64,000 nt of DNA from Haliotis rubra (taxonomy: Eukaryota). The stretch covers positions 24,041 through 88,040 of the forward strand of contig NW_025765324.1 in assembly GCF_003918875.1 (NCBI RefSeq). Direction: 5' to 3'. Position numbers and translations under genes: made by a program. Below the pieces are notes generated by a model. That model had not been told where the DNA came from, searched no databases, and worked only from the letters and a program-made list of their open reading frames with translations. How positions within the stretch are numbered: position 1 is the stretch's first letter; the number at the start of each line of letters is the position of its first letter. Below are positions 40,715 through 42,439 of the stretch, piece after piece.

Positions 40715-40850
40715 CCGGGGCGGTGGGGTAGCCTAGAGGTTAAAGCGTTCGCTCGTCACGCCGCAGACCCGGGTTCGACTCCCCACAAGGATACAATGGG
40801 CGAAGTCCATTTCAATATTGCTAGAATGTTGCTACACTTGTGTTATACCC
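40715..40850 (+). mobile_element. SINE-B. It has a tRNA-derived head (A-box TAGCCTAGAGGTTAAAG, B-box GGGTTCGACTCC), then …aatattgct…, followed at 40850-41040 by the D-module.
   Basis: The family recurs at 44075-44230(+), 54775-54905(+), 55935-56035(-), 58270-58440(-), 58690-58860(-), 59635-59805(-) and 22560-22640(-). Its 3' region (gctggaatattgc.aaagcggcgtaaa…actcac) is shared with SINE-A. Confidence 0.7.
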
Positions 40851-42439
40851 CAATACCTCTATAGATACTAATGCTTAGTCTCTGAATAGATACAATTTTG
40901 ATAGAAACAGTAATTCCATTCAAATTGAAATTTAACCTCAGCGCTTTGGGAGGAAATCATTTGCTTCATTTGGGGCTTTAGGATGGAAGAGAAAGTCATG
41001 CTGTTCAGGGACATGACTGTGAGACTGACTAATACTTGTCGTCCAAACTGACGAGTTGTACCAGCGCTCGAAATACCTGCCTGCCCGACCAACCGGGACG
41101 GGTAATTTTCAACACAGACTGCCAGATTCTCGAATGCACCTGCCCGACGGTTGGGTTAAAATTTAGACATGTATATGAAGTTAGTATTAGTCTTTTTCAA
41201 TATTTTAGAAGTTTTAATTTAATTCTTCTAAGTAAATTAGTATTTTTTGTGGGGCAGGCAAGTTTTGGTCAGGGCTGGCAAGTTTTACATCTAAACAGCC
41301 CTGTGGTCTGGTTTCATACCCTGGTTGTACACATGTGACGTCAATGGAAGCTGATTGTTTTGAGACCATCAGGTCACTGGTGTCGAACATTGCTTGTCTT
41401 GTATGGTTTGATTATTTCCAGACCGCCGCAGCTGACTATGGAGCAAAATCTTATTTAGATAATGATGATTTGTATGTTATAATGTAATATTGATACTGAT
41501 GTCAATTATCGCCTTTGACATTTACCCATGCTTGCTCTTATGATACAACTTGCGTGGCGATGTAGCATTGTGGGTGAAGCGTTCGCTGGTGACGCATGAG
41601 GTTCTATTCCCTATATCGGGATATGGAATGTACAGCATTGCTAGTGTCTTCCATATTTCTGAGTACAATTAAACGCGCCGTTAAGCCATATTCAGTTACT
41701 GGTGTTCTCAATGGTGCGTTCATCTGTTGTTTTAACACAGCATGTAATGAATGGATTGCTCCAGTGATGCCTTATTAAAAACAAGTATGTAGACAGTTAA
41801 ACATTAAAACAAATCGGTGGTAGTTAGGGACGTATATTTCACCACCAGTTGGATCTGTTCCCTGGTGAGGTCACAGGTCAACTTGTCAGCCTGACACCTC
41901 GGGGAAGCGCTGTTGGAGTGCTGAGTGATCAAACATGGCGGTGTTTTGGAAACTGCTCATACAGAGCTGAAGTCTGACTATAATCTAATCATCAGTGTCA
42001 CCTTTGGATGAATTGATCAAATTACCACGGTAAATCCATCTTTGGTGTTGTTTTCGTCCAAAGTGTGTGTTATGTCTCCATGGCTTATAAAAAAGGCTGG
42101 TCTTTTTTGGCTACCAAAGTTTTGTTTCATCAATAATAGACGTCAGAGTTCTGGGTTCCGATCCCCAAAACGTTCGTTGCTCTACGACATTCGTAGCCTT
42201 TGATAAACCATGGCGTTACGACAGGTCGTAACGTTCCGAACGCTTGTGGATCCTAATCCTGATCCATGAAGCTATCTTTGCGCCTCGTCATTCGTAAACG
42301 TACGATAAACCATAGAGTTACGATAGCTCTTGTAGAGTGAGTGAGTGAGTTTAGATTTACGTCGCAGCTCGTTGTAGTCTGCGTCTCAATTCTCTTTGCT
42401 GCTCAGCAGGCCCCGCGTTGCCTGGGGTTACCGTGTAGA

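Follow-up and report, generated by a model that had tools for sequence, protein, structure and literature searches.

Introduction

SINE families that have a 3' tail in common have already been published for molluscs, Haliotis included. The passages of PMC4758252 that deal with molluscan SINEs describe shared tails, mosaic SINEs, Haliotis SINEs without a tRNA head and a Haliotis MESC SINE with an internal (CA)n and a terminal (CACCT)n; HalSINE1 is described in the main text of PMC4824008. The tail of the Haliotis MESC SINE is called 'of unknown origin' in these texts (PMC4758252, PMC4824008). According to the LP-SINE part of PMC4758252, Hdi_LP of Haliotis diversicolor and Hmi_LP of H. midae carry a 70-bp head that is homologous to a Nimb LINE 5' UTR, the terminal tandem repeats of Haliotis and Ostrea LP-SINEs follow a hexamer resembling a poly(A) signal (AATATA or ACTAAA), and an LP-type SINE of the oyster Saccostrea has its body and tail in common with tRNA-headed SINEs.

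Bivalve SINE tails have been linked to Nimb LINEs, and the mosaic HCD SINEs of bivalves (highly conserved central domain) have Nimb, CR1, CR1-Zenon or L2 partners (PMC11481361). LINE/I elements are reported to be abundant in H. discus hannai (PMC5439488). UnaL2 and UnaSINE1 of the eel form a stringent-type pair (Kajikawa and Okada 2002, as cited in the texts of PMC4758252 and PMC4824008), and CR1- and L2-tailed bivalve SINEs carry conserved 3' stem-loops (PMC4824008, Fig. 5).

Here we analysed a 64-kb stretch of abalone DNA (the window). Its nanos ORF, which has a zf-nanos domain and is 97% identical to the Nanos-like protein of H. asinina, places it in Haliotis. An initial annotation, whose guess of a mollusc was thus correct, had read it as a set of modular SINE families, SINE-A, SINE-B and SINE-C, with a further D-module; its observations were partly confirmed and its interpretation is partly supported. 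We consider it probable that the window holds many LINE-dependent retroposons which share a hairpin tail, plus an independent D transposon. The significance beyond annotation is small: one abalone locus illustrates the published 'jigsaw' or mosaic evolution of SINEs in molluscs.

Results

Using nhmmer with family consensi built from the window's own copies, few and decayed as these are in 64 kb, we found ~20 SINE-A loci, 11 SINE-B loci, 12 D matches and, for SINE-C, two full and two partial copies. Copy numbers of at least 13 for SINE-A and at least 9 each for SINE-B and D had been claimed and hold. SINE-A, SINE-B, D and SINE-C together occupy 12.2% of the 64 kb (nhmmer), short of the share of at least 15% that had been put forward.

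The region flagged as a modular SINE, 40715-41040, is not one element. It consists of an old SINE-B followed by a separate, non-autonomous D. D is ~170-200 bp long, non-coding and multicopy, and reads 5'-TAGACTAA...CAGACTAG-3'. The copies that bear on this point are the following:

40719..40861, forward strand: SINE-B, old, in the flagged region (nhmmer consensus 1-149, E=1.4e-24)
40862..41032, forward strand: D, 3' of this SINE-B (nhmmer consensus 4-199, E=9.5e-18)
54805..54926 (start approximate), forward strand: SINE-B, old, 5' end truncated or decayed (nhmmer consensus 32-150, E=3.9e-13)
54927..55111, forward strand: D, 3' of this SINE-B (nhmmer E=2e-36; 8-bp TSD TGCTTCCA / TCCTTCCG, 6/8)
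37029..37206, reverse strand: D, within a 31-bp satellite (exact 8-bp TSD GTCAGAAT)
46140..46338, reverse strand: D, stand-alone (TSD CGTGTTTT / AGTGTTCT)
44729..44914, forward strand: D, followed by a 5'-truncated SINE-B at 44914-45041 (nhmmer)

D had been placed directly 3' of SINE-B heads at 40715-41040 and 54775-55110. It does adjoin SINE-B at both sites, but not as an extension of bare heads: the upstream elements are whole old copies with a recognisable tail (nhmmer to consensus 149-150 of 162). In the SINE-B at 40719..40861 the tRNA-like head starts at 40719, the tail hairpin at 40814-40849 is decayed and a remnant of the microsatellite is left; the one at 54805..54926 retains a tail remnant at 54874-54909. 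D also occurs alone, as had been stated; 46140-46338 and 37029-37206 are examples.

All four complete D copies are flanked by a duplication of fixed length, 8 bp, with 25/32 matching positions in total (binomial p = 8e-10, or 0.0006 allowing 2 nt of boundary tuning). In the flagged region this target duplication (TSD) lies at 40854-40861 (TACCTCTA) and 41033-41040 (TACTTGTC) and matches at 5/8 positions. The satellite into which the copy at 37029..37206 inserted has an uninterrupted unit at 36716-36732. Because all four complete copies have their own fixed 8-bp TSD, we regard D as an independent MITE-like element, and its proposed role as a shuffled SINE module is not supported.

Alternatively, module shuffling might have produced a composite SINE-B/D family (head, tail and D), of which the stand-alone D copies would be 5'-truncated members. 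Twice a D copy immediately follows a SINE-B in like orientation and starts 12-17 nt past GTAAAAC, an adjacency that we estimate to arise by chance at ~3e-5 under uniform placement. In addition, the four D/SINE-B adjacencies in 64 kb, against ~0.12 expected by our estimate for uniform placement, count against the explanation we favour. However, both of these D copies have an 8-bp TSD at their own boundaries (5/8 and 6/8), as do two further copies (8/8 and 6/8), and a TSD around the whole B+D unit was looked for and not found. Stand-alone D copies begin at consensus 2-5 beside unrelated flanks, and this common start shows that D 5' ends are not variably truncated. The 3' end of D bears neither a repeat nor an A-rich tail, the sequences at the two B-to-D junctions are dissimilar, and in two other places the order is reversed, with D 5' of SINE-B. 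We therefore consider a composite family quite improbable. Given the TSDs of D itself and none around B+D, both arrangements are nested or adjacent insertions, and separating the MITE-like D from the SINEs keeps a false composite family out of repeat libraries.

MITEs of the hAT type have an 8-bp TSD, short terminal inverted repeats and YARNG...CNYTR termini. D is like them in its fixed 8-bp TSD, its TAG...CTA termini, its length of ~200 bp, its lack of coding sequence and its many copies. It is unlike them in its terminal inverted repeats, which are weak, imperfect (TAGWCT) and ~6 nt long, with ~5/7 terminal bases complementary, and in its 5' terminus, TAGAC, whose fifth base is off YARNG. 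D resembles a hAT-like MITE and, with its weak terminal inverted repeats, is a candidate for that class.

SINE-A is ~245 bp long, has no tRNA head and has a body unrelated to SINE-B. Its consensus ends in ...GTAAAACTAAA(CTCA)n, with the hexamer ACTAAA before the tandem repeats. Representative copies, and a MITE that interrupts one of them, are:

30927..31169, forward strand: SINE-A, best full-length copy (nhmmer E=3e-71)
23878..24119, reverse strand: SINE-A, full-length (nhmmer consensus 1-244, E=3e-66; 7-bp flanking repeat)
22943..23163, reverse strand: SINE-A with an internal deletion (TSD of ~13 bp, CCTTTACARTTCT)
57170..57377, forward strand: SINE-A, 5'-truncated, from consensus position 36 (exact 12-bp TSD TTAAACATCTTA)
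62479..62658, forward strand: SINE-A, 5'-truncated, from consensus position 65 (TSD TCCAGGT(GA))
39463..40057, forward strand: SINE-A, interrupted by a nested MITE (nhmmer)
39572-39935: the nested MITE, 364 bp, with 15-nt terminal inverted repeats (TAGGG) and an exact 8-bp TSD ATGTCATC; a clear hAT-like MITE

The best copy has its tail hairpin at 31113-31149, (ACTC)n from 31156 and a 15-bp TSD, CTGTCATCGTATCAC, at 30913-30927 and 31168-31182. The SINE-A consensus gave no Rfam match at E<=1 and no ARAGORN cloverleaf; it contains no A box, and we recognised no head from a small Pol III RNA (tRNA, 5S, 7SL). SINE-A can be likened by description to Hdi_LP and Hmi_LP as presented in the LP-SINE part of PMC4758252: it is flanked by TSDs, lacks a tRNA head and has ACTAAA before the terminal repeats. 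The 70-bp Nimb-related head is the defining feature of the LP-SINEs; at the 5' end of SINE-A we saw a weak B-box-like resemblance to the head of SINE-B, a 16-mer with 14/16 identical positions that was equalled in 5/2000 shuffles.

SINE-A could also be taken not as a SINE but as the last 245 bp at the 3' end of the partner LINE itself, present as 5'-truncated LINE copies. The lack of a tRNA head, an A box and an Rfam match would suit such an origin, as would the LINE-type tail and one frame that is open for ~66 codons. Yet 8-9 copies (one from an independent data set) start at consensus 1-4, with unrelated upstream flanks and with TSDs that abut them or lie within ~12 nt, and no copy extends further in the 5' direction. 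A regex search for the reverse transcriptase motifs YXDD and GxPQG in all six frames of the window found no reverse-transcriptase-like context, and when the open frame of SINE-A served as a protein query, it retrieved only an ORF on one of two SINE-bearing metagenome contigs and no protein containing a reverse transcriptase. A LINE end is thus a very improbable identity for SINE-A, and we treat the family as a SINE.

SINE-B measures ~160 bp and comprises a tRNA-like head, a short linker and the 3' module; we recognised neither a body nor a conserved domain in it. Within the module, a GC-stemmed hairpin is followed by UAAAAC-YAAA and then by (ACUC)n. Besides the two old copies upstream of D, we list:

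58691..58852, reverse strand: SINE-B, best full-length copy (nhmmer E=4e-41; 12-bp TSD TCATACAGGTGG)
58268..58424, reverse strand: SINE-B, full-length (nhmmer E=5.9e-42)
59637..59792, reverse strand: SINE-B (8-bp TSD CTGTACCC)
44077..44224, forward strand: SINE-B (TSD CTTCCTCC(C/T)CACCG)
12287..12360, forward strand: SINE-B, 5'-truncated, consensus 89-162 (nhmmer)

The truncated copy at 12287..12360 is flanked by a 17-bp exact direct repeat, ATAGCGGTATCAGTAAC, whose downstream copy lies ~19 bp beyond the end of the match and which we took as the TSD. For Pol III promoters the A box consensus is TRGCNNAGTGG and the B box consensus GGTTCGANNCC; the SINE-B consensus has corresponding boxes in TAGCCTAGTGG and GGTTCGATTCC. 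ARAGORN found no tRNA at default settings, and a tRNA-Asp(GTC)-like cloverleaf in the SINE-B head only at a relaxed threshold. Rfam tRNA matches reached 25.6-25.7 bits, below the gathering score of 29; in the best copy the match covers 58779-58850 in the head, and the tail hairpin lies at 58711-58747. Other Rfam matches at E<=1 were a plant-miRNA-like hairpin and a sub-threshold snoRNA (snoZ178).

The third family, SINE-C, has its own tRNA-like head, different from that of SINE-B, in line with the independent head ascribed to it before. Its consensus has A and B boxes in GTGTAGTGG and GGTTCGATCCC, and a tRNA-Ser(AGA)-like head was found only at the relaxed ARAGORN threshold. The two full copies are:

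19649..20007, reverse strand: SINE-C, full, with a tRNA-like head, internal (CA)n, terminal (CACCT)n and a 14-bp TSD
55309..55650, reverse strand: SINE-C, full (14-bp TSD CCCTTTGGCGAGCC)

Both read CACATACACATACACA... internally and end in ...TTTCACCTCACCT, and the tail hairpin of the first lies at 19671-19708. We compared SINE-C with the Haliotis MESC SINE 'Hdi' (Matetovici et al. 2016, PMC4758252), which equals the MetaSINE HalSINE1 (Nishihara et al. 2016, PMC4824008). Elements of this type carry a central Meta/MESC domain of 66-100 bp immediately behind the tRNA head. The tRNA-like head, the long body, the internal (CA)n, the terminal (CACCT)n, the TSDs and the Haliotis host agree, and SINE-C matches the Haliotis MESC/MetaSINE type by its published description.

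SINE-A, SINE-B and SINE-C are genuine SINE-type retroposons, as had been proposed, with TSDs of 7-17 bp and 5'-truncated copies. Several copies have exact flanking repeats that exceed those of all 60 control comparisons; these measure 15, 12, 9, 7 and 7 bp for SINE-A, 17, 12, 8 and 8 bp for SINE-B and 14 and 14 bp for SINE-C. Truncated copies begin at consensus positions 36, 65, 89 and 129. TSDs of variable length together with 5' truncation indicate LINE-mediated retroposition.

The common tail of ~60 bp attributed to SINE-A and SINE-B is a real shared module. The two consensi align over a 58-bp 3' segment with 86% identity (Smith-Waterman score 81, null maximum 27), and the tail motif occurs eight times in the window at <=3 mismatches, compared with 0 expected. 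When the microsatellite is left out, 40/47 positions are identical, and none of 5000 shuffles reached that score. This non-repeat segment of 47 nt is CCGCCGCCATATAGCTGGAATATTGCTGAGTGCGGCGTAAAACTAAA, and (ACTC)n comes next in both families.

We then compared these tails with that of SINE-C. The same two-step stem-loop is predicted for SINE-A, SINE-B and SINE-C, with a modest gain in fold energy over shuffled sequence (z = -1.0 to -2.0). Folding of the alignment, which comprises three family consensi only, gave 10 pairs, 5 of them with changes on both sides that still pair, for example CGCCGC/GCGGCG in SINE-A versus CGUCGU/ACGACG in SINE-C. The combination of a stem-loop, short tandem repeats and compensatory stem changes was thus seen in these three consensi only and with modest z-scores. 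Local alignment of the whole SINE-A and SINE-C consensi was not significant (score 21, null maximum 25). Tail-to-tail global comparisons of A with C and of B with C both scored above all 5000 shuffles. Chance likeness of the A and C tails was also considered and was dropped, as 0/5000 shuffles match the tail-to-tail global score. Judged by sequence and predicted fold, the SINE-C tail is a diverged homologue of the A/B hairpin that the initial annotation had missed. The main text of the papers on Hdi and HalSINE1 makes no mention of a kinship with a tail of the SINE-A/B type (PMC4758252, PMC4824008).

Instead of template switching, DNA-level recombination or gene conversion between genomic copies might have spread the common tail, or SINE-A and SINE-B might use different LINEs with similar 3' ends. 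No feature in the window discriminates between exchange at the RNA and at the DNA level, and with (ACTC)n in some families and (CACCT)n in another, related yet distinct tails do occur side by side. Two points argue mildly against DNA-level exchange: the 5' boundary of the shared A/B module coincides with the base of the predicted hairpin, as would be expected if selection acted on a functional recognition unit, and the literature, in the relevant passages of PMC4758252 and PMC4824008, favours template switching. We give these alternatives very little chance of being right, and template switching is the reading that we follow below. That the segment might be a mere chance similarity of microsatellite type has a negligible probability, for although (ACTC)n does terminate it, the 47 nt remaining once the repeat is stripped are complex sequence that folds into a hairpin, with an agreement between families that no shuffle equalled; the possibility that consensus building would expose such a similarity, raised at the outset, is refuted.

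Discussion

By analogy with described pairs, the tail of SINE-A and SINE-B was most likely recruited by a single LINE or by several that are closely related. Every nhmmer match to the tail in the window belongs to SINE-A or SINE-B, and the window contains no partner LINE. Since no tail-bearing LINE was found there or in the public contig collections scanned, the partnership is inferred and rests on analogy. Our best guess for the partner, taken from the literature, would be a LINE of the Nimb/I clade, and the 47-nt hairpin provides a concrete probe for the partner LINE of Haliotis SINEs.

The three families are like UnaL2/UnaSINE1 and the CR1- and L2-tailed SINEs, as these are portrayed in the text and Fig. 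5 of PMC4824008 and in the text of PMC4758252, in that a stem-loop with compensatory stem changes is followed by short tandem repeats and one tail occurs on unrelated heads and bodies. They differ from stringent-type pairs in their repeat unit, ACTC or CACCT. Tail sharing between SINE-A and SINE-B also parallels that of the Saccostrea LP-type SINE as outlined in PMC4758252. With the HCD SINEs, whose tails are LINE-derived, the Haliotis SINEs have in common that homologous tails occur across otherwise different families; unlike them, they reside in a gastropod, and neither a body nor a conserved domain was recognised in SINE-B (PMC11481361).

A mechanism along these lines would begin with transcription of the tRNA-headed SINEs by Pol III. 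A 'stringent-type' partner LINE would supply the reverse transcriptase that recognises the 3' hairpin and repeat, and target-primed reverse transcription would copy the transcript into the genome. The expected products are 5'-truncated copies, along with TSDs and (ACTC)n arrays that vary in length from copy to copy. New families may form when different heads or bodies acquire the one functional tail, presumably as the reverse transcriptase switches templates. In the flagged region, D inserted at the end of the SINE-B tail and made its own 8-bp target duplication.

Two further ideas are unlikely, taken together: that D prefers SINE-B tails, or that both ends of SINE-A come from a partner LINE of the Nimb type, as in LP-SINEs. 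If the former were true, D would be a cut-and-paste element targeting retroposon 3' ends. If the latter were true, SINE-A, without a Pol III head, and the tRNA-headed SINE-B would form a natural matched pair on an identical tail, a pair that asks whether the tail alone sets mobilisation, whatever polymerase transcribes the element.

No paper matched any of six 16-20-mers of these elements in a full-text search. The exact tail pattern had 0 matches in public genome contigs and 0 in viral contigs; in public metagenome contigs it was found on two, where it belonged only to SINE-A and SINE-B copies of host DNA. These two short contigs, from a public metagenome assembly, supply SINE-A and SINE-B copies from independent data. 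Many ACTC/GAGT tetranucleotide repeats in the window sit in repetitive SINE flanks, and such repeats may complicate the design of abalone markers.

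The shared 3′ tail

Consensi of the short retroposon families SINE-A, SINE-B and SINE-C and of the D element were built from copies extracted within the window, which was then scanned by nhmmer. The window is ~40% GC and has many repeats, with 47% of it matching elsewhere within the window.

Repeat families in the window (nhmmer, window-derived consensi)
SINE-A: ~20 loci, 6.4% of the window
SINE-B: 11 loci, 3.4%, tail cross-hits included
SINE-C: 2 full copies and 2 fragments, 1.8%
D: 12 hits, 2.7%

The counts of the initial annotation (at least 13 SINE-A, 9 SINE-B and 9 D copies) were reached, while its coverage of at least 15% was somewhat high, all four families together occupying 12.2%.

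The tail motif quoted for SINE-A and SINE-B occurred 8 times in the window at up to 3 mismatches and never in 100 shuffles. Only the last 58 bp are common to the two consensi, with 86% identity (Smith-Waterman score 81, against a null mean of 16 and a null maximum of 27). Without the terminal (ACTC)n, 40 of 47 positions were still identical, a score that 0 of 5000 shuffles reached. Thus, the shared module is real and not a chance microsatellite-like similarity.

For SINE-C, only an independent head had been noted, which has a tRNA-Ser(AGA)-like fold at a relaxed ARAGORN threshold. The SINE-C tail is a diverged homologue of the SINE-A/SINE-B segment. Tail-to-tail global alignment scored 15 versus a null maximum of 11 (with SINE-A) and 7 (with SINE-B), and 0 of 5000 shuffles got as high; whole-consensus local alignment did not reveal this homology.

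A common fold was predicted for all three tails, with a GC-rich outer stem of 6-7 bp, an inner stem of 2-4 bp and a 9-nt loop (UGGAAUAUU or CGAAAUAUU), followed 3′ by UAAAAC or UUAAAC, then YAAA and the tandem repeat. The base of the outer stem coincides with the start of SINE-A/SINE-B similarity. In the alignment fold, which comprises only three consensi, 5 of 10 pairs stay paired despite changes on both sides, as in the outer stem CGCCGC/GCGGCG of SINE-A versus CGUCGU/ACGACG of SINE-C. Folding energies were only 1-2 sd better than those of shuffled sequence.

In one SINE-C 3′ fragment, a 56-bp stretch covering the tail (47839-47894) is 100% identical to 19650-19705, which belongs to the full copy spanning 19649-20007; outside this stretch the fragment is far more diverged. 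Either a young truncated insertion or gene conversion could explain the identity.

Retroposition and the proposed LINE partner

Exact direct repeats flanking the SINE copies were compared with 60 control comparisons, and around many copies they exceeded all 60 in length.

Flanking direct repeats of SINE copies (window position in brackets)
SINE-A: 15 bp (30927), 12 bp (57170), 9 bp (23163), 7 bp (24119), 7 bp (62479)
SINE-B: 17 bp (12287), 12 bp (58852), 8 bp (59792), 8 bp (44077)
SINE-C: 14 bp, both full copies

Several copies bearing such target-site duplications (TSDs) have an intact 3′ end and are 5′ truncated, starting at consensus positions 36, 65, 89 and 129. TSDs of variable length, 5′-truncated copies and a microsatellite at the 3′ end together mark target-primed reverse transcription by a LINE, as summarized in PMC4758252 and PMC4824008. 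SINE-A, SINE-B and SINE-C of the initial annotation are real SINE families.

As is standard, the shared tail is best explained by a common LINE partner, which was not found in the window or in the public contig collections scanned. Tails of Meta and V SINEs have been linked to Nimb (I superfamily), CR1-Zenon, CR1 and L2 LINEs (2024, PMC11481361), and LINE/I is exceptionally abundant in the genome of H. discus hannai (PMC5439488). On these published grounds, the partner would most likely be a Nimb/I-clade LINE.

One near full-length SINE-A copy, together with fragments of SINE-B, was detected on two public metagenome contigs matching the tail; both families are therefore present outside the window. 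Metagenome contig PEAW01029297.1 has a 'mini' SINE-B (1589-1654), an internally deleted variant in which the tail hairpin and (ACTC)n come straight after the first ~20 nt of the head. The same contig carries an array of ~40-bp tandem repeats.

Heads and relation to published mollusc SINEs

Only when its threshold was relaxed did ARAGORN return a cloverleaf for the SINE-B consensus, which was tRNA-Asp(GTC)-like. Matches to the Rfam tRNA model scored 25.6 and 25.7 bits, under the gathering score of 29, and the SINE-B and SINE-C heads resemble each other only to the degree expected of tRNA derivatives. SINE-A has no tRNA head, and Rfam gave no match; the sole indication of one is the 16-mer GAAGATCCGGGTTAGA at its positions 6-21, which matches the SINE-B B-box region at 14 of 16 positions (reached by 5 of 2000 shuffles). 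Eight or nine SINE-A copies, one from an independent data set, start within consensus positions 1-4 beside unrelated upstream flanks, which argues against merely truncated LINE ends. SINE-A is thus a discrete unit.

In mollusc SINEs, heads, bodies and tails have been likened to the exchangeable pieces of a 'jigsaw' (Matetovici et al. 2016, PMC4758252), and shared tails are already well documented in molluscs, abalone included. SINE-C agrees exactly with the Haliotis MESC SINE in its internal (CA)n and terminal (CACCT)n (PMC4758252). That MESC SINE has also been described as the MetaSINE HalSINE1, whose 3′ tail is also found on several bivalve SINEs (Nishihara et al. 2016, PMC4824008). Haliotis LP-SINEs have no tRNA head, are flanked by TSDs and have AATATA or ACTAAA before their terminal repeats; SINE-A ends in ...GTAAAACTAAA(CTCA)n. 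In the oyster Saccostrea, one LP-type SINE shares body and tail with tRNA-headed SINEs (PMC4758252). By described features rather than consensus alignment, SINE-A would fall among LP-SINEs and SINE-C among MESC/Meta. SINE-B, and perhaps SINE-A as well, would at most add undescribed members to a known kind.

D is a separate transposon

The initial annotation treated D as a SINE module. D measures ~170-200 bp, with defined ends 5′-TAGACTAA...CAGACTAG-3′ and neither a terminal repeat nor an A-rich end. Boundaries from the copy at 37029-37206 were carried over to the other three complete copies.

Complete D copies and their 8-bp flanks
37029-37206, minus strand: D inserted in a 31-bp satellite; exact duplication GTCAGAAT
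46140-46338: D, 6/8 matches
40862-41032: D, 5/8 matches
54927-55111: D, 6/8 matches

The uninterrupted target of the first insertion, GGGTCAGAATGTGCAGC, was seen at 36716-36732. Pooled, the four copies gave 25 of 32 flank matches (binomial P=8e-10, or P=0.0006 if 2 nt of boundary tuning is permitted at both ends), and no duplication was found around the SINE-B plus D unit as a whole. Thus, instead of a SINE module, D is a non-autonomous element that transposes independently, and its TSD is fixed at 8 bp. It resembles hAT-type MITEs in this TSD, but its inverted termini are weak.

The SINE-A copy at 39463-40057 holds a textbook hAT-like MITE of 364 bp (39572-39935) nested within it. The MITE has 15-nt terminal inverted repeats (TAGGGCTGGGACGGG / CCCGTCCCATCCTTA, starting TAGGG) and an exact 8-bp TSD (ATGTCATC), indicating that such elements were active in this genome.

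The reported position of D directly 3′ of SINE-B was confirmed at both sites, but the neighbours are whole, old SINE-B copies and not bare heads.

Sites with D directly 3′ of SINE-B
40715-41040: SINE-B 40719-40861, then D 40862-41032
54775-55110: SINE-B ~54805-54926, then D 54927-55111

Decayed as they are, their tails remain in the nhmmer alignment as far as position 149-150 of the 162-position consensus. Since D has its own TSD in both cases, the two are separate insertions. Four same-orientation pairs lie within 60 bp (40719-41032 and 54805-55111, SINE-B first; 43907-44224 and 44729-45041, D first), versus ~0.12 expected by our estimate under uniform placement. One possible account is that D has a target preference, another that repeats cluster regionally.

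A partial D copy (28206-28298) adjoins an Rfam MIR398-like hairpin (28044-28183, plus strand; 34.8 bits versus a gathering score of 55). As MIR398 is a plant family, the match is most likely chance or a repeat-derived hairpin.

Genes and tandem arrays

60564-61628, minus strand: intronless nanos ORF (zf-nanos domain, E=1e-22)

Its product is 97% identical to a Haliotis asinina Nanos-like protein, which identifies the window as abalone DNA and bears out the mollusc origin guessed in the initial annotation. Around the gene, within 3 kb, SINE-A and SINE-B copies number at least six. A tandem ~3.35-kb gene unit (1-11193 and 13230-16006; three direct copies and one inverted) contains ORFs of 167-185 aa with a signal peptide and a Gly/Met/Tyr-rich product with GLYGG/MGG repeats. 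Pfam gave no hit for this protein, which could be of structural or shell-matrix type.

Satellites and other tandem arrays
34437-38406: 31-bp satellite GTGTACAGTCTGACCCACACAGCGGTAGTAG, ~129 copies, broken by D at 37029-37206
48067-49906: 30-bp satellite AACTACAACAGCTTATACTCACCCCATCTC, ~60 copies, strong strand asymmetry (GC skew -0.76)
20177-21710: 174 bp x 9
25310-25991: 42 bp x 16
17084-17492: 15 bp x 28
53531-53678: 20-23 bp x 7
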